Positions 37,290 to 54,693 are shown, numbered from the stretch's first letter. The stretch: DNA of 64,000 nucleotides from an uncultured Pseudomonadota bacterium (GCA_964604015.1 CAZRXF010000001.1:104156-168155); one strand, 5' to 3'. The notes: generated from the sequence alone by a model not told the origin. Translations and numbers: made by a program.

Positions 37290-38096
37290 CTACAGCGGAT
37301 CATTATCAACAACGTACACCGGTTCGATGGATAACGCTTTTCCTGTGGCTGTGTCAGCGGTGATAACTGCTCCACTCAAGACATAGGGAGCGTCAGTTGC
37401 ACCCTGATATCGTGTTGGCATCTGGGTAAGAAAGCGATTCAAGAATCCTTCTTTTGTTGCGCCAATCATAGAATTGAGAGATCCTGCCATCCCAAGGTCG
37501 CTGATATAGGCAGTTCCGTTAGGAAGTATTCGTGCATCGGCTGTTTGTACATGTGTGTGGGTTCCTACGACCGCCGTTACTTTCCCATCAAGGTACGCTG
37601 CTAAAGCAACTTTTTCGGCATTCGTTTCTGCATGAAAATCAACAAACATGAGCGGAGTAACTTTTTTTGCTTCTTCAAGAAGATCGAGTGCTTTTTGAAA
37701 GGGACAGTTAATCTGTACGGGCATAAAAAGGCGTCCCATCAGGTTCATGACCCCGACAGTAACTCCTTTGCAGGAAAAAAATGTCATGCCTTTTCCGGGG
37801 CATGCATCAGGGTAGTTTGCCGGTCTGAGGATAGTTTCTGATTGATTGAGATACTCAAAAATATCTTTCTTATCAAAGATGTGATTGCCCGAGGTGATGA
37901 CTGTAACACCGTGATTGTGCAAAAATTGTGCGATTGCAGGAGTGATTCCTTTTCCATCAGCGCAGTTTTCTCCATTGATGATGATTGCATCAAGTTGGTA
38001 TTCAGAGCGTAGGTGTTCGACATGACGTGCAAAAAGATCTCTTCCTGGTCTGCCTACCAGATCTCCTAGCAGCAAAACACGTATGACACTGCTCAT
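37290..38096 (-). CDS. ymdB: YmdB-like metallophosphoesterase (2',3'-cyclic-nucleotide phosphodiesterase family), copy 2
   Basis: 268 aa. Blocks present: VLLLGDLVGRPGR, IINGENCADGKGIT, VITSGNH, VDFHAETNAEK and GTHTHVQTADARILPNGTAYISDLGMAG. Its start overlaps the upstream stop as ATGA (38093-38096). Confidence 0.8.
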   Translation of the reverse strand: MSSVIRVLLLGDLVGRPGRDLFARHVEHLRSEYQLDAIIINGENCADGKGITPAIAQFLHNHGVTVITSGNHIFDKKDIFEYLNQSETILRPANYPDACPGKGMTFFSCKGVTVGVMNLMGRLFMPVQINCPFQKALDLLEEAKKVTPLMFVDFHAETNAEKVALAAYLDGKVTAVVGTHTHVQTADARILPNGTAYISDLGMAGSLNSMIGATKEGFLNRFLTQMPTRYQGATDAPYVLSGAVITADTATGKALSIEPVYVVDNDPL

Positions 38097-38914
38097 GAGA
38101 GGTCCCCCAATTGTTCTGCATCTGTTTTTATAAAAGGTTCGATGGCAAGTGCCTTACCGGTTACTGGATCGACCGTGATGATTGCTCCTGTCATGTGGTA
38201 AGGTGCTGTGACTACTACTTCGCCGTGATGTGGCATTCGCGTGACAAATCCTTGGACAAACGGTTCTAGTTCAAAACCAATAAGAGAGTGAGTTGAGCCT
38301 GACATACCAAGGTCAGTGATATATGCTGTTCCACCAGGTAAAATTCGCGCATCACTGGTAAGCGTATGGGTGTGCGTTCCAACAACAGCGGTTACTTTCC
38401 CTTCTAAAAAGTACGCGAGACCCAATTTTTCTGAAGTAGCTTCTGCATGAAAGTCGACAAACATGATGGGGGTAATGGCAGCGCTTTCTTTGAGCAGCTT
38501 TTCTGCTTCGTAAAAAGGACAATCAAGGACAGGATCCATGAAGACGCGACCCATGAGATTCATGACTCCGATGGTGTATCCCTTACAGGAAAAAAAGGTC
38601 ATCCCCTTACCAGGACAAGAAGCGGGAAAATTTGCAGGGCGAATAACGTCTGTATGTGCATCAAGGTACGGAAAAATGCTTTTTTCATCCCAGCTGTGGT
38701 TACCACCAGTGACGATATCTGCTCCGTTCTTTCTTAAAAACAAGGCGTCTTCGGGGGTGATGCCGCATCCTGAATCGGTGCTGTTTTCTCCGTTTACTAT
38801 GATTGCATCAACAGCATGATCGGCTCTGATTGCGGTACTGTGACGGGCAAAAAGAGCTCTACCCGTCCTACCAATCAGATCACCAAGCATCAGTACGCGT
38901 AGCACCTGACTCAT
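38093..38914 (-). CDS. ymdB: YmdB-like metallophosphoesterase, copy 1
   Basis: 273 aa with the same motif set (VLMLGDLIGRTGR, IVNGEN, VTGGNH, VDFHAEATSEK, GTHTHTLTSDARILPGGTAYITDLGMSG). It starts 12 nt downstream of the rny stop. Confidence 0.8.
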   Translation of the reverse strand: MSQVLRVLMLGDLIGRTGRALFARHSTAIRADHAVDAIIVNGENSTDSGCGITPEDALFLRKNGADIVTGGNHSWDEKSIFPYLDAHTDVIRPANFPASCPGKGMTFFSCKGYTIGVMNLMGRVFMDPVLDCPFYEAEKLLKESAAITPIMFVDFHAEATSEKLGLAYFLEGKVTAVVGTHTHTLTSDARILPGGTAYITDLGMSGSTHSLIGFELEPFVQGFVTRMPHHGEVVVTAPYHMTGAIITVDPVTGKALAIEPFIKTDAEQLGDLS

Positions 38915-38926
38915 AAGCTCTCCTTT

Positions 38927-40486
38927 TTATCGAGCGTATTCAATCGAACGTTTTTCTCGGATAACGTTAACTTTAATTTGTCCGGGGAAAGACATTTCGT
39001 CTTCAATGCGTTTTGCAATGTCACGCGCCAAGATTCCTGCTTTTTCATCGTCAAGAAGGTCCTCCTCAACAATGACGCGGACTTCCCTACCTGCTTGCAA
39101 CGCATAGGCTTTTTTAACTCCGCCAAAGCTATTTGCAATGTCTTCGAGTTTTTCAAGCCGTTTGATGTATGCAGTGAGTGTTTCTCTACGTGCACCAGGA
39201 CGTGATGCTGAGATGGTATCGGCAATCACTACAATCGGGGCATAAATAGAAAGGAAGGGAACTTCTTCATGGTGAGCCGCAATTGCGTTTACCACAAGAG
39301 GGCTTTCTCCACAGCGTTTTGCAATATCGCCACCGATGATAGCATGCGGTCCTTCAACCTCTGCAGTTACGGCTTTTCCAATATCATGTAAAAGACCAGC
39401 GCGCATTGCTATTTCACCGTTTAGACCGAGTTCTTCTGCAATCATACGGGCAAACATACCGACTTCTTTACTGTGATCGAGGACATTTTGAGAGAATGAT
39501 GTTCTAAAATAGAGCTTACCCAGCAAGGTTACGATTTCAGGGTGAATGCCTTGGATATTGCATTCAAGGATTGCCTGCTTTCCGTATTCTTCAATTGCTT
39601 CTTCGATTTCTTTTTCGTAGTAAGCAACCGTTTCTTCAATACGTGTTGGATTGATACGACCATCAAGAATCAATTTTTCAAGGGTACGGCGCGCTATTTC
39701 TCGTCGTATCGGGTTAAAGCCAGAAATGGTAATTACTTCCGGTGTTTCACCAATAACAAATTCCATCCCCGTTGCCATTTCAAGCGACTTGATGTTGCGC
39801 CCTTCTTTTCCAATGATGCGCCCTTTCATTTCTTCCTTTGGAAGGTGCACTACACTGGATGCGTTCGGCGTTACTTGATCGATGGTGTAGCGCTGCATGG
39901 CGCTTACGACGATTTGTATAGATTTTTCTTTTGCCGTTTGACGTGTTTCTTCTTCAACCTTTTGGATCCATTTTTGATTAGAAAGATTCACTTCAGCGTA
40001 TAAGATATCGGCAAGTTCTTTCTTTGCTTGGTCTTTGCTCAAGCCACCGATATTTTCCAGCTTGGTGATCAGCTCTGTGTAGAGTGATTTGAGCTTTTCC
40101 TCATTTGAGTGCATAAGCTCGCTCATTCGATTGAGCTTGCGCTCTTTCTCCTGGAGTTCTCGCTTGAGATCATCAAGTTGCTCTTCTTTTTTATCGAGCG
40201 TGTCTTCTTTGGATTGGATCTTTGATTGTTGGCGATCGAGTTCAATGCGATCACGCTTAATCTCAGCTTCAAACTCAGTGCGTCGTTTATAAATCTCGTC
40301 TTTGACTTTTAAAAGCGCTTCTTTTCGTTCCGTTTCTATTTCTCGTTTTGCACTTCTGTGCTTTTCTTCGACGGAAGCCAGCAACGCATTCGCATCCGCC
40401 AATTTTTTCTTGGCGTACATGAGCATTACCAGGGCTAGTGCAATCCCCACAAGCCCAAGAAGAACTTCACCTATTCCTAATAACAT
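38927..40486 (-). CDS. rny: Ribonuclease Y
   Basis: 519 aa. It has an N-terminal TM anchor (LLGLVGIALALVMLMY), a long coiled coil, a KH domain (GRIIGKEGRNIKSLE) and an HD domain (GLLHDIGKA). Confidence 0.92.
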   Translation of the reverse strand: MLLGIGEVLLGLVGIALALVMLMYAKKKLADANALLASVEEKHRSAKREIETERKEALLKVKDEIYKRRTEFEAEIKRDRIELDRQQSKIQSKEDTLDKKEEQLDDLKRELQEKERKLNRMSELMHSNEEKLKSLYTELITKLENIGGLSKDQAKKELADILYAEVNLSNQKWIQKVEEETRQTAKEKSIQIVVSAMQRYTIDQVTPNASSVVHLPKEEMKGRIIGKEGRNIKSLEMATGMEFVIGETPEVITISGFNPIRREIARRTLEKLILDGRINPTRIEETVAYYEKEIEEAIEEYGKQAILECNIQGIHPEIVTLLGKLYFRTSFSQNVLDHSKEVGMFARMIAEELGLNGEIAMRAGLLHDIGKAVTAEVEGPHAIIGGDIAKRCGESPLVVNAIAAHHEEVPFLSIYAPIVVIADTISASRPGARRETLTAYIKRLEKLEDIANSFGGVKKAYALQAGREVRVIVEEDLLDDEKAGILARDIAKRIEDEMSFPGQIKVNVIREKRSIEYAR

Positions 40487-45457: not shown

Positions 45458-46171
45458 TTAACCCTTTCTTTTTTCGATAATGTCTATCGTTTTGATGTGC
45501 TCTCTTTGTTGGATTGTACTCGTAATTTTTTGTAAATCTTGCTTGCTTTCAAATTCCCCAGTGGTTACTTGGTACCAGGTTACCGCTCGGCCACGCTTTG
45601 TCTTACTTTCCCGCTTTTGTACAGCAACTTGTGGGTCGAAAATTTTCACTCGCTGTGCAAACTGAGTAGCAGCAAGCAGTGTACCAAACCCTGCAAGGGG
45701 AGCAACAAATACCGTGGTCGGTTGGGCCGATGTCACTTCTGTTTTTACCTGTTCTTTTTGTTTGGAAGATTCTAGTGCATCCTCAGGGACTTGTTTTTCA
45801 GTGTTGCTTGCTTCATCTTCTCCATTTTCTTCTTGTTCTTCGCCCCCGTTGATATCTTCTGTTGCCGTTGATTCTGAAGTGTCGGACGTATCTTCTTGTT
45901 CGAACTCGCTCATATCGCGGTCGTTCATAGTATAGAGAGCATAGTTTATGCGGTCAGCAAATGACTCTTCTTCAATTTTGGCGACAAATCGCTGTATGGC
46001 ACGCCTGTGTCCCCAGAAATACCCTAAGATAAAGCAGACAAAGCCTAGTATAAGAAGGAGAGAAAAAAGCCAACTTGCTTGACGATGGGGAATAAACAGA
46101 CCCACCTGATCGTCTTTATGTTTGAGTACAATGCCTAGGGAATGTTGTATTTTTGTGAGCCAGGATTTCAT
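45458..46171 (-). CDS. Membrane-anchored SPOR-domain-like protein
   Basis: 237 aa with one TM segment (WLFSLLLILGFVCFILGYFW) and an acidic linker. The C-terminal ~75 aa show a SPOR-like pattern (VFVAPLAGFGTLLAATQFAQRV...VTWYQVTTGEFESKQDLQKI). Confidence 0.5.
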   Translation of the reverse strand: MKSWLTKIQHSLGIVLKHKDDQVGLFIPHRQASWLFSLLLILGFVCFILGYFWGHRRAIQRFVAKIEEESFADRINYALYTMNDRDMSEFEQEDTSDTSESTATEDINGGEEQEENGEDEASNTEKQVPEDALESSKQKEQVKTEVTSAQPTTVFVAPLAGFGTLLAATQFAQRVKIFDPQVAVQKRESKTKRGRAVTWYQVTTGEFESKQDLQKITSTIQQREHIKTIDIIEKRKG

Positions 46172-47218: not shown

Positions 47219-48781
47219 TTACAAAAATCCTACTCCACCATAAGAGGAGGTAAAGGTAGTCGGGGTGAAAGGATTGATATAACGAAGAGTGAGAAAGTCT
47301 CCTGCTGTAGGAGCTCCTCCAAATCCGGCGTCTATGTTAGTTTGTCCTACAACTACAATGTCCCCGCTTGGTGTGAGTGCGACTGCATGTCCAGCATCGC
47401 TCAGAGGTGGTCTTGAGATGTGAGTGATAGTGTATCCAGTTCCATTTGGTCCATATGAGGAATCAAGTCTTCCTTCTGATGTGTAGCGCAAAATAAGGAT
47501 AGAACTTCCCACTCCACCAACACCCCAGATATTTGTAGAGCCGGCTACTACAATGGAATTATCAAGTTGGAGCGTTACGCTGTAGGCACCATCAACGTAC
47601 CCTATTCCGGATATATTCGTTGTTACAATGCCATTTTGTCCAAATGCATGATCAATGGTGCCGTCTGAATTGTAACGTACCAAGCCAACATAACCAATAA
47701 CGGGTCCTCCCCCCTGATCAATATTGACTACCCCTGCTGCTATGATTTTTCCATCAGGTTGTAATACTCCAGCAAAAGCTTCATCTATGTAACCAACAAC
47801 ATTGGGTGAAATGTGTGTTGTAACGATTCCTGTTTGACTTGGTCCAAAAGTCTTATCAAGATGGCCGTCTTGAGAAAAGCGCATAATCAGAAACGAACCA
47901 ATAGCTATTCCTCTTGCTGTTACATTAGTTCCACCGATAGCAATAATTTTACCATCAGGTTGGAGAAGAAGTGCTTGAATGGAGTCAACTTGTCCTACCC
48001 CTGAGATATTTATGGAAAAAGTGCCATCCCCATTGGGACCAAAATTGTTGTCTGGTGTACCATCTGAATTATATCGAATTAAGGTAGCATCGCCTGTTCC
48101 CAAACCTCCCTGATAGATGTTTGTGAAACCACCAACTAAAATCTTCCCATCAGGCTGAATAACGACACTTGTTGCTCCGTCAATGCGTCCAGAAAAATTT
48201 TTGGTGACTATTCCATTTTTGCTTGGTCCAAATGAAGTATCAAAAGAACCATCAGAGTTGTAACGTACTACACCAAAATATCCAATGTTAGGAGCGGCAT
48301 CGTAAATGTTGGTTGATCCTACAACCACGATTTTCCCATTGGACTGTATTGCTACACCATTGGCACCATCAATGTAACCGGCGCCACTAAGGCTTGTTGT
48401 AACATAGCCAAGGTTATTACCAAAAGAATGATCAAGAGTGCCGTCAGTGTTGTATCGCAGTGTAGCAAAAAGTCCGGTAGGTGGAGGGCCACCAGCACCG
48501 TTAATATTCAGTTCTCCTACTGTTACAATTTTCCCATCTGATTGTAGTGCTAATGCATAGCAACCATCCGCCTTGCCAGAGATATTGAGTGTTGCATACC
48601 CAATGCCATTAAATGTGTGGTCAAGAAGACCTGCAAGGTTAATCGCTTGTACATAACTTGCAAAAACCGCAGGCGGAGTCTCTGGGGTGATTCTAACCAT
48701 AGCACTGAGGCGTAAGAAGCTTATTGTTAACAGAATGACCAATGAAAAAATGGAAGTTAGTGTGTTTTTTTTCTTTTTCAC
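47219..48781 (-). CDS. Secreted delta-60-type repeat (beta-propeller) protein, copy 2
   Basis: The GTG start at 48781 is preceded by GAGGA with a 6-nt spacer. The signal/anchor is KKKKNTLTSIFSLVILLTISFL. At least six ~55-60-aa repeats carry the core (L/V)RYN(S/T)DG(S/T)xDxxFG...DGKI(V/I)(V/A)(V/G)G. Confidence 0.75.
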   Translation of the reverse strand: MKKKKNTLTSIFSLVILLTISFLRLSAMVRITPETPPAVFASYVQAINLAGLLDHTFNGIGYATLNISGKADGCYALALQSDGKIVTVGELNINGAGGPPPTGLFATLRYNTDGTLDHSFGNNLGYVTTSLSGAGYIDGANGVAIQSNGKIVVVGSTNIYDAAPNIGYFGVVRYNSDGSFDTSFGPSKNGIVTKNFSGRIDGATSVVIQPDGKILVGGFTNIYQGGLGTGDATLIRYNSDGTPDNNFGPNGDGTFSINISGVGQVDSIQALLLQPDGKIIAIGGTNVTARGIAIGSFLIMRFSQDGHLDKTFGPSQTGIVTTHISPNVVGYIDEAFAGVLQPDGKIIAAGVVNIDQGGGPVIGYVGLVRYNSDGTIDHAFGQNGIVTTNISGIGYVDGAYSVTLQLDNSIVVAGSTNIWGVGGVGSSILILRYTSEGRLDSSYGPNGTGYTITHISRPPLSDAGHAVALTPSGDIVVVGQTNIDAGFGGAPTAGDFLTLRYINPFTPTTFTSSYGGVGFL

Positions 48782-48794
48782 GAGGAATCCTCTT

Positions 48795-50354
48795 TTATAA
48801 GAACCCTACTCCACCATAAGAGGAGGTAAAGGTAGCCGGGGTGAAAGGATTGATGTAACGAAGCGTGGTAAAGTCCCCTTCTGCAGGAGCGCCCCCTGCT
48901 CCTGCTCCTACGTTCGTTTGCCCAGCAACTAGAATGCTGCCATTTGCGGCAAGAGTAACACCATAACCGGCATCATAAAGAGGGGGATTTGAAATTTGCG
49001 TGGTAACATACCCAATTCCTTGTGGGCCAAATGAAGGATCAAGAGTCCCCTCTGGGGTATAGCGCAAAACAAGAATTGATCCAGGAGCTCCAGCAGTTCC
49101 TCTTTCATTTGTGGCACCTGCGACGACGATAAAGGCATCTAATTGAAGAACTGCTGCATTTGCATAATCAAGGTAACCGTTACCAGAAATATTTGTCGTT
49201 ACAATTCCACCCTGCCCAAACGAGGCGTCGAGAGTGCCATTCGAAGTATAGCGCACCAAACATACATCTCCGATTGGTATTCCTGTGCCTTGGGTGTTGG
49301 TTGATCCTACTGCCACAATTTTTCCATCGGGTTGGAGGACCCCTGAAGCTGCGCCATCAGCATATCCAACGGTGTTTGATGAGATGTGTGTCTGTACAAT
49401 GCCTGTTTTGTCTGGTCCGAATGTTGAGTCAAGAATGCCTTCTTGAGTAAGCCTCATGACAAGAAAGGAACCAGTTCCTCCTGCCCCTGATATATTAGTT
49501 GCTCCGATGGCAATAATTTTTCTGTCAGGTTGTAAGAGAACGCTGTTTGCAATATCGGTCTTATTGTTACCCGAAATGCTTACAGAGAAAGCTCCATTAC
49601 CGTCAGGTCCAAAACTATCATCTTCCGAGCCATCTGCATTGTATCGAAGAAGTGCAGCCTTTCCTTGTCCGCCTACTAGTGCAAAGGCAAGAATGTTTGT
49701 AAATCCTCCAAGTAAAATTTTACCGTCAGGTTGAATGACAACACTGGTCGCTCCATCTACATTACCTGAGAGGTTCCTTGTGACCGTTCCGTTCTGAGCA
49801 GGTCCAAAGGTGGCGTCAGGGGATCCGTCGGGATTATACCGTACGATGGCAAATGATCCTACGGGGGGAAAACCGTTAAGTCCACGATTTGTTTGTCCTG
49901 CGACAACAAGTTTGCCATCTGATTGGATAGCAATAGCAGTGGCAAAATCGGCAGTACCAGGTCCACTAAAACTTGTTGTAACGTATCCAAGTCCATTTCC
50001 AAATGAGGGATCTAGAGAACCATCAGTGTTGTAGCGGGCGGTGAGGAAGACGCCTGTTCTTCCTCCTCCAATATTGAGATTTGTTCCTCCAACAACGACT
50101 ACTTTGCCATCAGATTGAACTGCGATCCCGTGTGCCCTATCAGCAAATCTATCAATGTTCAGGGTTGCATACCCAATACCATGAAAGGTGTGGTCAAGAA
50201 GGCCTGTAAGATTGATTGCTTGGACGTAACTTGCAAAGACTGCAGGTTGAGTTTCTGGGGTTATCCTAACCATAGCGTTGAGGTGTGAGAACTTTATTGT
50301 TAGCACAATGGCTAGGGAAAAAATAAGGACAAATACATGCTTTTTCTTGTTCAC
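48795..50354 (-). CDS. Secreted delta-60-type repeat (beta-propeller) protein, copy 1
   Basis: I moved the start to the GTG at 50354, preceded by AAAGGAGA with a 7-nt spacer. This gives NKKKHVFVLIFSLAIVLTIKF, parallel to the paralog. The repeat core is the same. The N-terminal ~45 aa after the signal and the last 20 aa are nearly identical to copy 2. Confidence 0.75.
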   Translation of the reverse strand: MNKKKHVFVLIFSLAIVLTIKFSHLNAMVRITPETQPAVFASYVQAINLTGLLDHTFHGIGYATLNIDRFADRAHGIAVQSDGKVVVVGGTNLNIGGGRTGVFLTARYNTDGSLDPSFGNGLGYVTTSFSGPGTADFATAIAIQSDGKLVVAGQTNRGLNGFPPVGSFAIVRYNPDGSPDATFGPAQNGTVTRNLSGNVDGATSVVIQPDGKILLGGFTNILAFALVGGQGKAALLRYNADGSEDDSFGPDGNGAFSVSISGNNKTDIANSVLLQPDRKIIAIGATNISGAGGTGSFLVMRLTQEGILDSTFGPDKTGIVQTHISSNTVGYADGAASGVLQPDGKIVAVGSTNTQGTGIPIGDVCLVRYTSNGTLDASFGQGGIVTTNISGNGYLDYANAAVLQLDAFIVVAGATNERGTAGAPGSILVLRYTPEGTLDPSFGPQGIGYVTTQISNPPLYDAGYGVTLAANGSILVAGQTNVGAGAGGAPAEGDFTTLRYINPFTPATFTSSYGGVGFL

Positions 50355-50418
50355 TAGAAGGTCTCCTTTTAAAGACAAACAGTTTCAACCGTAGTAAAAA
50401 GAGCTGGTATTTTTCAAT

Positions 50419-50466
50419 AAATAATTGAGAGTTGATCGGGCAATCGCGATCAACTCTCAATTATTT
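50419..50466 (-). terminator. Long perfect inverted repeat, a probable terminator after carD
   Basis: Left arm 50419-50438 (AAATAATTGAGAGTTGATCG) is the exact reverse complement of right arm 50447-50466, a 20-bp stem with an 8-nt loop. It lies 10 nt downstream of the carD stop. Confidence 0.55.
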
Positions 50467-50475
50467 TAAAAGAAG

Positions 50476-51238: not shown

Positions 51239-52603
51239 ATGCAAAAAGATGTCCGTAGCCTAGCAAATAGCGCTGAGCCGGGTAAACAGACTGAAGAATA
51301 TTTTTTTAAAAATTATAAGGAAAAGTTCTTTCGGGCGGTGAAATGGAACGTCGTTGAATCGATTGGCTATCAAGTAATTTTTATGCTTCATCAGTGTGGA
51401 CTTTTTTGGTATTGCGATCGAAGTTTGTATGGGAAAATAGGAGCACTTCTTGCTGCCTGTTACTTGGGGGTAACCGTTCTTGTGGCAGGATTTGATGGAG
51501 GACTTCTTCCTTTTTTTGAACGGTTTACTGCAACAAAACAGGATTTTAAAAAATTTATTTTTGGCAAACTTGTGCCACACCTGTGCCTTATGGTCGGGAC
51601 CGTTGGTCTGATCGGCATCATTTTTTTTATAAGCGGTCGAACTTTTTTTTCTTTTTCAGGATGGTCACTCTTTCTTGTGGGGCTGTTTGTTCTGGTTGAA
51701 GCAACCAAGAAAATTTTGAAGCAATTGTTGTATCTTGGTTTTCATAATAAACAGACTGCCCTTTTTGAGGTCCTTCAGATCGGACTCTACTCAGGAACCG
51801 TATGGGGTTGTTACATGGCGGGCATTCCGTTTTCGATACCACTTTTTATGATTCCATTTATTGTGTGGTCAACCGTGTTTTGTTTTTTATGTGTGTGTAT
51901 CTTAAAAGTTTATTATCGGACACTTCCTTTTGCGCATACGACCTCTCTTCCTCTTATCTCTTTGTCATTTATATTTCTTAGAGGCGCTGTCCTTATTAAT
52001 CAGTTAAGTCGGGCATTTTTTTCCAGCAATTTCCTAGTTCCCCTTTTTGCAATTCATGGTGGGTTTAGAGAAGCAGGTGTTTTAACCTTCGCAAATTATC
52101 TGACACATGCTTGCACCTTTTTCATTCAAAAGATAACTCTTCCTCCTGCAGAGGCATTATTTAGCAGAATAAAAAAACTTTCACTTGTTGCTCATCATAA
52201 AGCTTTTTCATTAGTCCTTACCCTTTTTTCATCACTTACACTTGTGTTCGGATTTTTATTTTTTTTCAAGGGACGCTCATTAGCAACTTCGTTCGGATAT
52301 AGCGTACTGGACCATGTTACCTGGAAGCTTCTTATTTTCTTTTTCTTTATTCACCTGCTTGAAAGTATCTTCATGTTGTATGAAAAATTCTTTCTTTTGC
52401 AAGAGCAGATCATGTTTCTTGCTCTTGGTAACGTAATCACATGCGTCATTTGCTATCTTCTTTTCCTCCTGAAGTTACCATTTTTTGTTCTTGTTTTTAC
52501 CTGCATTTTTATGAGATTTTCCTTCTTTATCTTCCTCTCGCTCCGCATCTACTCTTCAAAATTGGCATCTGGAGCCTCTTTTCAAGGGCGGTTGCAACGA
52601 TAG
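51239..52603 (+). CDS. Polytopic membrane protein, MOP-flippase-like (Wzx/MurJ-type), copy 1
   Basis: 454 aa with about 12-14 hydrophobic segments. It aligns by eye with the ORF at 53329 (e.g. SRAFFSSNFLVPLFAIHGG...LPPAEALFSRI against SLSERNFLFPFITSIQGQ...TIGIADTALLSYV). The family call is tentative. Confidence 0.45.
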   Translation: MQKDVRSLANSAEPGKQTEEYFFKNYKEKFFRAVKWNVVESIGYQVIFMLHQCGLFWYCDRSLYGKIGALLAACYLGVTVLVAGFDGGLLPFFERFTATKQDFKKFIFGKLVPHLCLMVGTVGLIGIIFFISGRTFFSFSGWSLFLVGLFVLVEATKKILKQLLYLGFHNKQTALFEVLQIGLYSGTVWGCYMAGIPFSIPLFMIPFIVWSTVFCFLCVCILKVYYRTLPFAHTTSLPLISLSFIFLRGAVLINQLSRAFFSSNFLVPLFAIHGGFREAGVLTFANYLTHACTFFIQKITLPPAEALFSRIKKLSLVAHHKAFSLVLTLFSSLTLVFGFLFFFKGRSLATSFGYSVLDHVTWKLLIFFFFIHLLESIFMLYEKFFLLQEQIMFLALGNVITCVICYLLFLLKLPFFVLVFTCIFMRFSFFIFLSLRIYSSKLASGASFQGRLQR

Positions 52604-52917
52604 CAAATAAACAGCTTTCTTGATACAGGTAACCCATTTAATTGTCGCGGCAAAAAACTTTTGTCATTTTTGATTTTTTCAAAATACGCCCACTAGGAGC
52701 TTGTTTTGGACGATATAAAAAACAGGTATCGACTTCTTTTTCTAATAGGGTTTTTTTGTAAAACTACAACATGAAATTCTGCTGGTTGCTGGAAAATGTT
52801 TGGAATGATGCAGGAAATTAGTTATCGGACGCTTGCTTTCTTGATGTGTAAGGTTTACAAGATGTGCACTGACCGTTATGATGGTTTCCTTGGTTTGGTT
52901 TAAAATAAAGGAGCAGT

Positions 52918-53295
52918 ATGAAAAAATGTCAGGGATTATTATTCGTTATAACTTTGTTACCTTCTTCTTTGTGTGCTTCAAATACTTCTCCATCATCTCC
53001 TTCTTCAAAATCTGTTAATGCTGCACCCGCTGCATTTCCCGTCTGTACGCAGGCTTTCAGGAAAATCTATGACGGAACGTTATCAGTTACTGACGTACAA
53101 CAACAATCATGGTTTACCTCGTATGATCTTCTTTACAAAGAATATAACGGTGTTCAAACATCAGACTCCAACGTGCTTTCGCTACTTTCACAATTAAAGA
53201 AGGAAGCCATTACACCAGAAGCTGCAACTACATCATTTACAGCTCTCCAACAAACATTGATCAATCAAACGAACACACTACTTTCTAAGCAATAA
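52918..53295 (+). CDS. Small secreted hypothetical protein
   Basis: 125 aa with the signal peptide MKKCQGLLFVITLLPSSLCA, followed by a Ser/Pro-rich linker. An RBS (AAGGAG) lies upstream. Confidence 0.55.
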   Translation: MKKCQGLLFVITLLPSSLCASNTSPSSPSSKSVNAAPAAFPVCTQAFRKIYDGTLSVTDVQQQSWFTSYDLLYKEYNGVQTSDSNVLSLLSQLKKEAITPEAATTSFTALQQTLINQTNTLLSKQ

Positions 53296-53328
53296 CGTGA
53301 TTCACAGAGGGTTTTCAAGGGGGCTGTC

Positions 53329-54693
53329 ATGGTAACGCACACGACGGACAACACGAATCGTTTTTTCAAAGCATTTACCACAGCCATCAACTGGAATGCC
53401 CTCTTTTATATTCTTTATAAAGTTTGCTTTGTCGCTCTCACGTTTGTCCTATACCGTATTTTGCCAAGTGTTTACTTCTCGCAATGGGCAACCGCAAATA
53501 GCGTCATTTTCATCTTCCTTCTTTGGATCAACTGTGGATTTAAAAAATCTATCCCCCGTTTTGCGCCTGTTTTTAGTAAGGACTACTCCTTTCACCGCGC
53601 CTTTATCATCGTTCTTTTATTGTTCAAATCTTCCATACTGTTGCTTGGGATCCCTCTTCTTATAAAAGTACTTTCGTGGGTTTCTCCCGATCTTCCCTTT
53701 CTGCCGCTTATCCTGGGTATTTTTGCAACAGAAGGCTTGTGTTCTCTTTTCCTTCTTATTTATCACGCACATTTCTGGCAGAAACAGTTCAATCTCATAC
53801 AAGCACTCTTCTTGCTCATAGAAATGATCATCTCGTTCTCATATCTTGCTTTTTCATCAGGGCGCCCTGATGCGGTTGTTTCCTTCCTTTTCTTTGCAAA
53901 ACTTTTAAGCAATTGTGGCATCATCATCTCTTCTCTTATCTTGCTCCCTTCTTTGTATCGTGCCACGCTCATCCCCCCTACACAGCACCTTGAGAAACGC
54001 CTTTCAGTCAGAGCCTTCATCAAACATTCTCTTGTCATGTGGGTCATCGCCATCTTTCAATCCCTCTCAGAACGCAATTTCCTCTTTCCTTTCATTACTT
54101 CGATACAAGGGCAAGCCATCGGCAACATCTTTAAGGTCACGAATGATGCTGCTATTTTCTTCCAGCGCATCGCCCTTCAAACCATCGGTATTGCTGATAC
54201 GGCGCTTCTTTCCTACGTGGAAGTAACGGATAAGCGTATTTCACAGATTAGACTGGCTTTCAAGATGATCTTCAAGACGGTCTTTGTCTTGTGCATGCCG
54301 CTTCTTTGTGTAGGGATAGTTCTCTTTTTTAAGAACTACACCGATGTTCCAGCCACCTCAGCATTCCTCTTTCTTTTTATTGCGACAGGGACAACCCTTG
54401 AGATCATTCTATCGCCTTATGCACGCGTTCTTGAGGTGAAGTTGTGTTACAAAGAGCTCTTCTTTTCCTATTTCCCTTACGTCTTGGCATACGGAGCCCT
54501 AGCGCTGTTGTATGCGTACTCTTTTGTATCCCTAGTCTTCTTTGTATCTGCTGCTCATGTGGCGCGTATTATGTGCGCTCTCATTATGGTGTATTATGCA
54601 AAAAAAGATTTTCGCGTGCAGCTTCCTTCCTTCTTTACGACCCTTGTTTTGCTCTCTTGCCTTGCCGCACTCTTTGCAGCTCTCTTTGTCTAA
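53329..54693 (+). CDS. Polytopic membrane protein, MOP-flippase-like, copy 2
   Basis: 454 aa, the same length and topology as the ORF at 51239. The family call is tentative. Confidence 0.45.
   Translation: MVTHTTDNTNRFFKAFTTAINWNALFYILYKVCFVALTFVLYRILPSVYFSQWATANSVIFIFLLWINCGFKKSIPRFAPVFSKDYSFHRAFIIVLLLFKSSILLLGIPLLIKVLSWVSPDLPFLPLILGIFATEGLCSLFLLIYHAHFWQKQFNLIQALFLLIEMIISFSYLAFSSGRPDAVVSFLFFAKLLSNCGIIISSLILLPSLYRATLIPPTQHLEKRLSVRAFIKHSLVMWVIAIFQSLSERNFLFPFITSIQGQAIGNIFKVTNDAAIFFQRIALQTIGIADTALLSYVEVTDKRISQIRLAFKMIFKTVFVLCMPLLCVGIVLFFKNYTDVPATSAFLFLFIATGTTLEIILSPYARVLEVKLCYKELFFSYFPYVLAYGALALLYAYSFVSLVFFVSAAHVARIMCALIMVYYAKKDFRVQLPSFFTTLVLLSCLAALFAALFV

Follow-up and report, generated by a model that had tools for sequence, protein, structure and literature searches.

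Constant ends and variable blades in a tandem pair of predicted exported delta-60 propeller proteins from a Dependentiae-like bacterium

What keeps the ends of two neighbouring proteins nearly identical while the repeats between them diverge? An earlier note on this DNA had placed a tandem pair of genes for proteins of about 520 amino acids at 47219-50354 of the window (the whole analysed stretch of 64,000 nucleotides), and had offered gene conversion or selection on terminal modules as explanations. The reading frames bear out the pair: gene B (48795..50354, minus strand; GTG at 50354, stop codon 48795-48797) encodes 519 amino acids and gene A (47219..48781, minus strand; GTG at 48781, stop codon 47219-47221) encodes 520. 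Both are intact, and a pairwise protein alignment gives 63% identity overall. The GTG starts with strong ribosome-binding sites, also claimed in that note, can be read from the sequence, with AAGGAGA seven nucleotides before the start of B (50362..50368, minus strand), and AAGAGGA six nucleotides before the start of A (48788..48794, minus strand), directly after the stop codon of B. A longer start of B at TTG 50378, from an ORF caller, lacks a ribosome-binding site and was rejected.

As the gap from the B stop to the A start is 13 nucleotides, A and B are probably co-transcribed. A strong hairpin (50412..50471, minus strand; RNA folding energy -27.8 kcal/mol, z = -7.9, matched in stability by none of 200 shuffles) lies just after the stop codon of a CarD-like gene and is probably the terminator of its transcript, in which case B-A would form a transcription unit of its own. 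A scan for promoter and terminator consensus sequences returned counts not above those of shuffles; the simple terminator scan overlooked the hairpin because its T-run is imperfect. Identical A and B sequences occur on three independent metagenome contigs, and a 520-residue version of A is present in a public protein collection (P0121).

The 27 residues preceding 'MVRITPET' are predicted to be signal peptides, in A (MKKKKNTLTSIFSLVILLTISFLRLSA; 48701..48781, minus strand) as in B (MNKKKHVFVLIFSLAIVLTIKFSHLNA; 50274..50354, minus strand). They combine a K-rich n-region with a hydrophobic core (Kyte-Doolittle mean over 12 residues of 2.7 in A and 3.3 in B) and with LSA or LNA before the proposed cleavage site. 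They align with the signal peptides of relatives, and every N-terminally complete family member has a signal peptide at the same position, together with the N-terminal cap described below. These Sec-type features predict that A and B are exported by the Sec route, in line with the earlier description of the proteins as secreted. The start codons of public gene calls, which cut off the signal peptide, are corrected here.

Both proteins belong to the delta-60 repeat / DUF5122 family, as had been proposed. Profile scans give 242 bits (A) and 269.4 bits (B) for TIGR02608, against a curated cut-off of 76.5, and 129.5 and 163.2 bits for PF17164, against a cut-off of 27; each protein has six matching stretches. 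AlphaFold2 predicts a seven-bladed propeller with seven four-stranded blades (pLDDT 86-88, pTM 0.86), and all Foldseek matches of the model are propellers. In A, the predicted propeller spans residues ~55-503, with blades from 62-110 to 450-501, each made of four consecutive strands, and pLDDT exceeds 90 in every blade of the models. The repeat period is ~63-68 residues in A and B (D strands at residues 105, 169, 232, 297, 363, 428 and 496), longer than the 55-60 residues estimated earlier. A Velcro closure, in which the tail would help to build a blade from strands of both chain ends, was rejected, since the models show no strand exchange. A sequence search of the PDB matched no solved structure, and a literature search for delta-60, DUF5122 or TIGR02608 found no experimental paper, only one on repeat modelling.

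Conservation is concentrated at the two ends. The N-terminal cap modules of A (MVRITPETPPAVFASYVQAINLAGLLDHTFNGIGYATLNI; 48581..48700, minus strand) and B (MVRITPETQPAVFASYVQAINLTGLLDHTFHGIGYATLNI; 50154..50273, minus strand), located by tblastn, are 90-95% identical, the last 19-30 residues 87-95%, and the core ~61%, so the alignment shows no uniform divergence. The terminal peptides quoted in the earlier note are exact, and its picture of near-identical termini around diverged cores is accurate. After the signal peptide, both proteins carry VRITPET.PAVFASYVQAINL.GLLDHTF; the DYNGNP prefix of most family members is missing from A and B. Both end in RYINPFTP(T/A)TFTSSYGGVGFL, as part of the C-terminal tails LRYINPFTPTTFTSSYGGVGFL-COOH of A (47222..47287, minus strand) and LRYINPFTPATFTSSYGGVGFL-COOH of B (48798..48863, minus strand), which were delimited by tblastn and the A/B alignment. 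The window holds no copies of cap or tail other than those of A and B. In the AlphaFold2 model of A, residues 31-50 of the N-cap have a pLDDT of ~63, with a short helix at 37-43; from about residue 50 the chain is part of the propeller and pLDDT exceeds 90. The second half of the cap weakly matches positions 35-54 of TIGR02608. The tail (residues 507-520) stays below 50 in both models. A second run, with an alignment that included 30 tail-bearing sequences, raised the N-cap to about 63, and the tail still remained below 50.

The earlier note had suggested looking for further proteins with the same tail, and they exist. An exhaustive HMMER profile search of 1.84 billion representatives with the tail returned 41 representatives at E<=1e-3, of which ~35 are true; all of these are delta-60 propellers, of 196-951 amino acids. 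The matches P0256, P0277, P0279, P0280, P0282 and P0283 are false positives, low-complexity or generic repeat proteins. The consensus RYINPFTLASFTASYGxVGLL-COOH forms the exact C-terminus in ~35 protein clusters with differing blade numbers. We define the sub-family by a tail RY.NPFT...F...YG.VG(L/M/F)(L/V/I) at the exact C-terminus, and by a signal peptide followed by (I/V)T(I/L)TP.T...(L/I)ASYTQ.IN..GLLD.TFG. The cap motif ITITPQTSS..LASYTQ.IN..GLLD.TFG is found in every complete member and aligns in all 30. It is an undescribed sub-family of the known delta-60 repeat proteins: no Pfam or NCBIfam model covered its N-cap or its tail in our scans. Two other searches were unproductive. A word-indexed protein search with a 40-residue tail profile gave 12 candidates, none of them significant by E-value in a database of 5.8 billion, and a metagenome scan with a degenerate DNA pattern for ITITPQTSS gave 102 matches, all 102 by chance and without ASYTQ context, so that the family was not recovered from that metagenome collection by that pattern.

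Conservation was measured in 45 tail-bearing sequences, which form ~35 clusters at 50% identity. Averaged over pairs, identity is 0.76 in the tail and 0.59 in the N-module against 0.41 in the core. The end point of the tail is in register in all 45 sequences, the stricter tail pattern fits 43 of them, and Y-19, N-17, P-16, Y-6 and G-2 are invariant. The last residue is always L, V or I (45/45). Variation falls mainly in the A-B and C-D loops (family conservation 0.29 and 0.25, versus 0.82 for B-C and 0.58 for D-A), and in standard beta-propeller topology these two loops lie on one face. The caps covary more strongly with one another than with the core: in a partial Mantel test of N-cap against tail with the core controlled, r is 0.33 (p=0.012), a signal that could simply reflect homogenisation within genomes. 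One related genome has four paralogues with N-cap identities of 73-80%, versus 47-63% between genomes, and cores at 41-55%. The gene neighbourhoods of family members differ, with no conserved dedicated neighbour gene and no linked processing enzyme.

As judged from a single marker, RecA, the source lineage appears to be Dependentiae (TM6)-like: the best taxon-named relatives are MAGs of Dependentiae/Babeliales at 73-79% identity, two named matches are labelled otherwise, and the closest matches reach 84-91%. The capped delta-60 family seems to be confined to Dependentiae-like bacteria. Dependentiae are found widely as obligate parasites of protists, and to our knowledge their host-interaction proteins are almost entirely uncharacterised. 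Cells of this lineage have two membranes and depend on Sec, and their secreted proteins are numerous (PMC6561590).

The nucleotide comparison of A with B shows that both explanations offered by the earlier note contribute, in different measure. A tract of 50 nucleotides in A (47229..47278, minus strand) has one mismatch to its partner in B (48805..48854, minus strand), and a codon-column permutation gives p=0.0002. Identical residues have identical codons at 20 of 26 sites in the tail versus 102 of 255 in the core (Fisher p=3e-4), and synonymous identity is 0.77 in the tail and 0.73 in the signal-peptide region, against 0.40 in the core. The only segment detected by blastn between the two genes is the last 144 nucleotides, at 82.6%. 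The ends and the core also differ in their relationships: the cores of A, B and their orthologue, a single copy in a related genome, are equidistant (61% identity between A and B, 60% between A and the orthologue), whereas the ends are 87-90% identical between A and B and 49-57% between A and the orthologue. The statistics thus support an exchange of ~50-60 nucleotides at the 3' end of A and B by gene conversion. The claim that the similarity extends to the nucleotide level therefore stands for the tail, but not for the N-module, where nucleotide identity is 81% and identical codons (19 of 35) are not significantly enriched over the core (p=0.14). Since tail and cap are conserved family-wide, purifying selection explains most of the terminal conservation; and because the N-module is conserved as protein in ~35 clusters while its synonymous sites are unremarkable, conversion acts in addition to selection, not in its place.

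Two alternatives would give recombination a larger part. Terminal similarity might stem solely from gene conversion or recent partial duplication of tandem copies, the termini having no special function. The 50-nucleotide tract, the raised synonymous identity at the ends, and A/B cores that differ as much as A and another genome's orthologue do all fit this, as do adjacent pairs in another genome with synonymous identities of 0.67-0.68 in the N-module. It is nevertheless very improbable, given that the modules are conserved as protein in ~35 clusters from many genomes, that the synonymous sites of non-adjacent paralogues are at a saturated baseline (0.16-0.47), and that the N-module of A and B combines 90% protein identity with synonymous sites not significantly above the core. 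That the other members are recent transfers of one gene is excluded by their core identity of 40%. Alternatively, the constant ends might be anchors for recombination that swaps variable cores, creating surface variation like that of msp2/p44 or vls. Conserved ends around diverged cores, the tandem and multi-copy arrangement, and recombination that does occur at the ends are what one would expect. But the N-module has a nucleotide identity of only 81% and long identical stretches are limited to ~50 nucleotides at one end, the copies seen are all complete genes with their own starts rather than truncated donor cassettes, the three contigs carry exactly the same A and B, and the ends are conserved as protein even where synonymous sites are saturated, so we give this idea hardly any credence.

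If selection holds the ends constant, what for? The reading that we tentatively prefer, while granting it somewhat less than even confidence, is that A and B represent a multigene family in which a signal peptide and a constant N-cap precede variable blades, a constant C-tail of 21 residues follows them, and the ends serve as a shared module for attachment or partner binding. In a closed propeller, the chain ends would come to lie side by side at the seam of blade 1 and blade 7, and we therefore propose that N-cap and C-tail make up one composite constant module. Such a module would tether every paralogue to one common partner or to one common site in the envelope or at the cell surface, or else the paralogues to each other, while the hypervariable face would bind differing ligands, plausibly host-derived, because Dependentiae are obligate parasites of protists. 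Selection on the shared interaction would keep the caps constant, and occasional conversion between adjacent copies would homogenise them further. The poorly placed tail (pLDDT <50) fits a peptide that may require a partner, with the proviso that low AlphaFold2 confidence is no proof of disorder. It is conceivable, if rather doubtful, that with this tail a lineage-specific anchoring signal of Dependentiae has been recognised for the first time.

Speaking against a composite module, both caps resemble degenerate parts of the repeat: the N-cap could be read as a pseudo strand D plus linker and the C-tail as a linker with pseudo strand A, which makes a purely structural role just as natural. The caps would then be degenerate repeat fragments that clasp or seal the propeller seam, perhaps by plugging it at blade 1 or by adding an outer strand to blade 7, and they would be conserved only because folding depends critically on ring closure. 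The profile match of the second half of the N-module, the parallel (in our reading of the sequence) between RYINPF...F...YG.VG and the RYNxDG..D..FG..G.V of the repeat, the presence of caps with any blade number, as in LRR caps, and the adjacent chain ends of a closed propeller all agree with this. However, AlphaFold2 makes all seven blades from contiguous strands, it leaves the tail below pLDDT 50 while all blades exceed 90, the tail has a major-residue frequency of 0.84, higher than any structural strand (0.44-0.60), and its end point is invariant (45/45), which a clasp does not obviously need. Purely structural caps are thus a serious but rather unlikely alternative. Another possibility raised earlier, that the ...YGGVGFL end is a sorting or outer-membrane-insertion signal, has the usual logic of such tags in its favour (many paralogues per genome, a signal peptide, a conserved extreme C-terminus), as well as the tail's lack of fold in AlphaFold2. 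Moreover, many delta-60 homologues in other phyla bear the T9SS sorting domain PF18962 at their C-terminus, so that elsewhere this position does serve localisation, an analogy that also speaks for a module of attachment. Yet it is unlikely here that the tail is a general signal recognised by its own machinery, in the manner of the T9SS CTD, the tags of exosortase and rhombosortase, or the BAM beta-signal. The exhaustive search found the tail on delta-60 propellers only; PF18962 and TIGR04183, which describe T9SS CTDs of 70-100 residues, matched neither the full proteins nor the isolated tails even at E<=10, and no other Pfam or NCBIfam sorting domain matched. The tail has no helix-length hydrophobic run or transmembrane segment and no basic cluster, with no basic residue after the R of RY, unlike exosortase, rhombosortase or sortase tags; the protein is a predicted soluble propeller rather than a beta-barrel, its last residue is never aromatic (0/45), and the gene neighbourhoods examined contain no linked processing enzyme. 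A family-specific role of the tail in anchoring or partner binding is possible. Finally, the tail might be a cluster of eukaryote-like short linear motifs with which an intracellular parasite recruits host machinery for endocytosis or trafficking, either to the bacterial surface or to a secreted propeller. NPF is an EH-domain ligand, YxxV is a YxxPhi adaptor motif, and a terminal di-leucine is also in the tail. Among the 45 sequences, N, P and Y are present in 45, F in 41 and V in 42; we regard this reading as quite improbable.

A multi-copy family of predicted exported propellers that combines a hypervariable face with two constant modules suggests a design in which binding specificities are many and the attachment is shared. 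The 21-residue tail offers an easy target for experiments and, as a new HMM for instance, for annotation. The repeat family itself is already catalogued, and no established idea is overturned.

Among known systems, the nearest are generic delta-60 proteins of Bdellovibrio, Pyrinomonadaceae and Bacteroidota; among the matches listed in a genome-collection scan, such relatives come from many phyla, at 33-40% identity to A and B over most of their length. They share the repeat, the predicted blades and the RYNxDGxLDxxFG and QxDGKI motifs, but are double propellers of ~850 residues without the N-cap and C-tail, whereas A and B, at ~520 residues, each make up one propeller of seven blades. T9SS cargo with PF18962, including delta-60 homologues of Bacteroidota and Ignavibacteriota, resembles A and B in having a Sec signal peptide, a propeller passenger and a C-terminal element common to many paralogues. 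However, the T9SS CTD is a folded domain of ~80 residues on many kinds of passengers, while the element of A and B has 21 residues, matches no HMM and occurs on delta-60 propellers only, in an organism that apparently lies outside Bacteroidota. The best structural match of the model is the Friedel-Crafts alkylase CylK (PDB 7ROO, 7FH6; Foldseek E=5e-18), also a seven-bladed propeller, with a query-normalised TM-score of only 0.59, 15% identity and an extra N-terminal calcium-binding domain; there is no indication of shared chemistry. Tandem paralogues that evolve in concert by short conversion tracts likewise show raised synonymous identity and differing phylogenies of ends and core, but conversion in A and B is limited to some tens of nucleotides at the ends of the genes, on top of strong selection at the protein level. 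In LRR proteins with LRRNT and LRRCT, as in the A/B family, constant caps flank a variable number of diversifying repeats. The LRR array is an open solenoid without sequence relationship to A and B, and its caps shield an exposed hydrophobic core that a closed propeller does not have.

Genes A (47219..48781, minus strand, an ORF of 520 aa) and B (48795..50354, minus strand, an ORF of 519 aa) encode delta-60 repeat propellers that are 63% identical overall. In a three-way alignment, the proteins share 90% of residues (81% of nucleotides) over the 48 columns of the N-module or N-cap, the constant module after the signal peptide, and 87% (88%) over the last 30 columns, versus 61% (62%) in the core of blades between the two ends. 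The orthologous locus of related genomes keeps the order carD, delta-60 gene(s), miaA, a hypothetical gene, ppiD, recA and infC. A relative with 91% identical RecA has one delta-60 gene there, to which the core of A is 60% identical versus 61% to B, the N-module 49% versus 90%, and the tail (the 21-residue C-terminal module) 57% versus 87%. The ends of A and B, unlike their cores, therefore share a later common history or constraint. Since the propellers are 50-57% identical between the two genomes and the housekeeping neighbours ~90%, the propeller proteins evolve fast.

An earlier note on this DNA had suggested either gene conversion or selection on terminal modules as the cause of the conserved ends. 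Both causes are real, but unequal: selection is the main one, and gene conversion contributes only locally, near the 3' end. The share of identical residues with identical codons in A and B, counted over spans that differ slightly from those of the regional identities, is 0.40 in the core (102/255), 0.77 in the tail (20/26; Fisher p=3e-4 versus core), 0.73 in the signal-peptide region (11/15; p=0.015) and 0.54 in the N-module (19/35; p=0.14). Synonymous identity of the core is saturated, as the same value of ~0.40 is found when A or B is compared with the orthologue of another genome. The longest near-identical run of A (47229..47278) and B (48805..48854) has 50 nt with one mismatch (p=0.0002, codon-column permutation), and blastn of A against B aligns nothing but their last 144 nt. 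Conversion alone is an unlikely cause of the conserved ends, and so is cassette-type variation.

The terminal modules are not confined to the pair. With a tail profile of 40 positions, an exhaustive HMMER search over 1.84 billion representatives returned 41 proteins at E<=1e-3 and placed the tail on many other delta-60 proteins; six of the matches, low-complexity or generic repeat proteins, were discarded as false positives. True matches have the tail at the extreme C-terminus of proteins of 196-951 aa with varying repeat lengths and blade numbers, and every member with a complete N-terminus has a signal peptide and N-cap. Signal peptide, N-cap and tail are also all present in two more genes beside the orthologous locus of a related genome. 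Seven relatives of ~500-560 aa (47-57% identity) likewise all have a signal peptide, the module ITITPQTSS..LASYTQ.IN..GLLD.TFG and the end RYINPFT..SFTASYG.VGLL. The tail consensus (n=45) is R-Y-I-N-P-F-T-L-A-S-F-T-A-S-Y-G-x-V-G-L-L, with Y-19, N-17, P-16, Y-6 and G-2 invariant and the same end point in all chains. Pfam and NCBIfam gave no match to either module up to E<=10, and the window holds no copies of N-cap or tail besides those of A and B.

Capped delta-60 genes often stand in adjacent pairs, and the related genome GCA_040384165.1 has four within 12 kb; loci of related genomes with such genes include L087 (402-3325 and 8001-11293), L089 and L093. Other capped members lie in unrelated housekeeping contexts, for example beside gltX near bamA. 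Two short proteins, P0250 (196 aa) and P0247 (221 aa), seem complete, with signal peptide, N-cap and tail around only two or three blades, and could therefore not close a propeller on their own; perhaps they oligomerise, or perhaps metagenome assembly has collapsed their repeats.

Among 30 complete members, pairwise identity averages 0.76 in the tail, 0.59 in the N-cap and 0.41 in the core. Distances of N-cap and tail correlate with each other given the core (partial r=0.33, Mantel p=0.012) and weakly with core distances (0.15 and 0.10, respectively). In a related genome with four paralogues, N-cap identity is 73-80% within the genome and 47-63% between genomes; synonymous sites are at baseline in non-adjacent pairs, and synonymous identity is raised (0.67-0.68) in the two adjacent pairs. 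Both caps thus evolve under strong selection at the protein level, together with a degree of genome-specific co-variation and, now and then, a short conversion event between neighbouring copies. Within the propeller, it is mainly the A-B loops (family conservation 0.29) and C-D loops (0.25) that vary, and the B-C loop (QxDGK, 0.82) and D-A linker (0.58) are conserved, which makes one face of the propeller hypervariable.

Both proteins score far over the TIGR02608 (delta-60 repeat) cut-off of 76.5 (A 242 bits, B 269 bits), as the earlier note had anticipated, and PF17164 (DUF5122; cut-off 27) matches six stretches in each (129.5 and 163 bits). AlphaFold2, run with two different alignments and with like outcome, predicts a closed seven-bladed propeller for residues ~55-503 (mean pLDDT 86.5 and 88.0, pTM 0.86). 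The repeat had been put at 55-60 aa; the blade period is slightly longer, at 63-68 residues. In the models, four consecutive strands would make up each blade, and 'velcro' strand exchange is not predicted. A PDB sequence search gave no match to A or B, and a literature search found no experimental work on the delta-60 repeat family. The family is catalogued, and the capped sub-family with its 21-residue tail is undescribed in the libraries and literature searched.

The proposed GTG starts and secretion of both proteins find support. Public calls of the pair (P0001, 493 aa, and P0002, 492 aa) start at an internal ATG (MVRITPET) and lose the signal peptide: the 27 codons upstream (48701-48781 and 50274-50354, minus strand) specify an n-region rich in K, then a hydrophobic core and LSA/LNA. 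Ribosome-binding sites occur only at the GTGs in both genes, the signal peptide read from the sequence has a counterpart at the equivalent place in every relative, and an ENA call (P0121, 520 aa) already uses the GTG start; together these support GTG initiation and export. The GTG of B at 50354 is preceded by AAGGAGA-N7, and a longer alternative (TTG at 50378) is without a ribosome-binding site. In a relative, the call P0007 begins 28 residues too far upstream.

A and B lie head to tail, and the 13-nt gap between them holds the ribosome-binding site of A. Directly 3' of the CarD-like stop and upstream of B is a near-perfect hairpin of ~20 bp (50412-50471, minus strand; -27.8 kcal/mol, z = -7.9), which a simple terminator scan did not pick up; because of its stability and position, B and A probably form their own two-gene transcription unit. 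The pair is followed 3' by miaA, a 237-aa protein, a PpiD-like isomerase, recA and infC, and independent metagenome contigs carry the same 7.4 kb at 100% identity. The gene of the 237-aa protein (45458-46171, minus strand) shares 4 nt with the end of miaA; the protein combines a single transmembrane-like segment with an acidic middle of low complexity, and its weak match to the SPOR domain stays below cut-off (E=0.008). A divergent block (51239-54693, plus strand) encodes a 125-aa protein with signal-like N-terminus between two 454-aa polytopic membrane proteins; Pfam and NCBIfam give no significant match for any of the three, only DUF1554 at E=0.15 for the 125-aa protein. Synteny of the block extends over three genomes, and in one of them two further capped delta-60 genes lie on its far side. 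Of all genes in this neighbourhood, the one for the 125-aa protein evolves fastest (45% identity). A very large ORF (57525-63998, minus strand, at least 2157 aa), whose counterpart of 2047 aa occupies the equivalent place in a related genome, has no Pfam match at E<=1e-5. GC skew flips from positive to negative at ~38000-40000, with the cumulative maximum near 38 kb, possibly marking a region where replication ends or starts.

The window, with a G+C content of 43.6%, carries ordinary housekeeping genes. Among named relatives of its RecA, the best (73-79% identity) come from MAGs of Candidatus Dependentiae / Babeliales, and by this one marker we provisionally assign the organism to Dependentiae. 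Dependentiae are bacteria with two membranes that depend on Sec, and secreted proteins take up a large part of their gene content (PMC6561590).

For the role of the caps we lean, tentatively, towards a model in which N-cap and tail leave the propeller next to each other, at the seam of blades 1 and 7, and together form one constant module. This module would tie every paralogue to a common partner or location, and the hypervariable face would bind diverse ligands. It is somewhat less likely that the caps are instead a purely structural clasp, a natural idea given that both look like degenerate repeat pieces; however, a clasp explains less well why the tail is conserved above any strand, why its end point does not vary, and why AlphaFold2 does not place it. 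The earlier note had considered that the tail could be a sorting or outer-membrane-insertion signal. A general signal of this kind is improbable, because the tail is found only on delta-60 propellers, is without features of known tags and has no linked processing gene in the neighbourhoods examined.

The capped sub-family alone reveals no new mechanism, but it offers a well-defined, testable way to approach the surface or secreted proteins of this enigmatic phylum of parasites. Among solved structures, the closest neighbour of the predicted fold is the CylK propeller (TM-score 0.59, 15% identity). In the tail, NPF (-17..-15), YxxV (-6..-3) and the terminal hydrophobic pair (-1..0) resemble eukaryotic endocytic sorting motifs, which may be coincidence.
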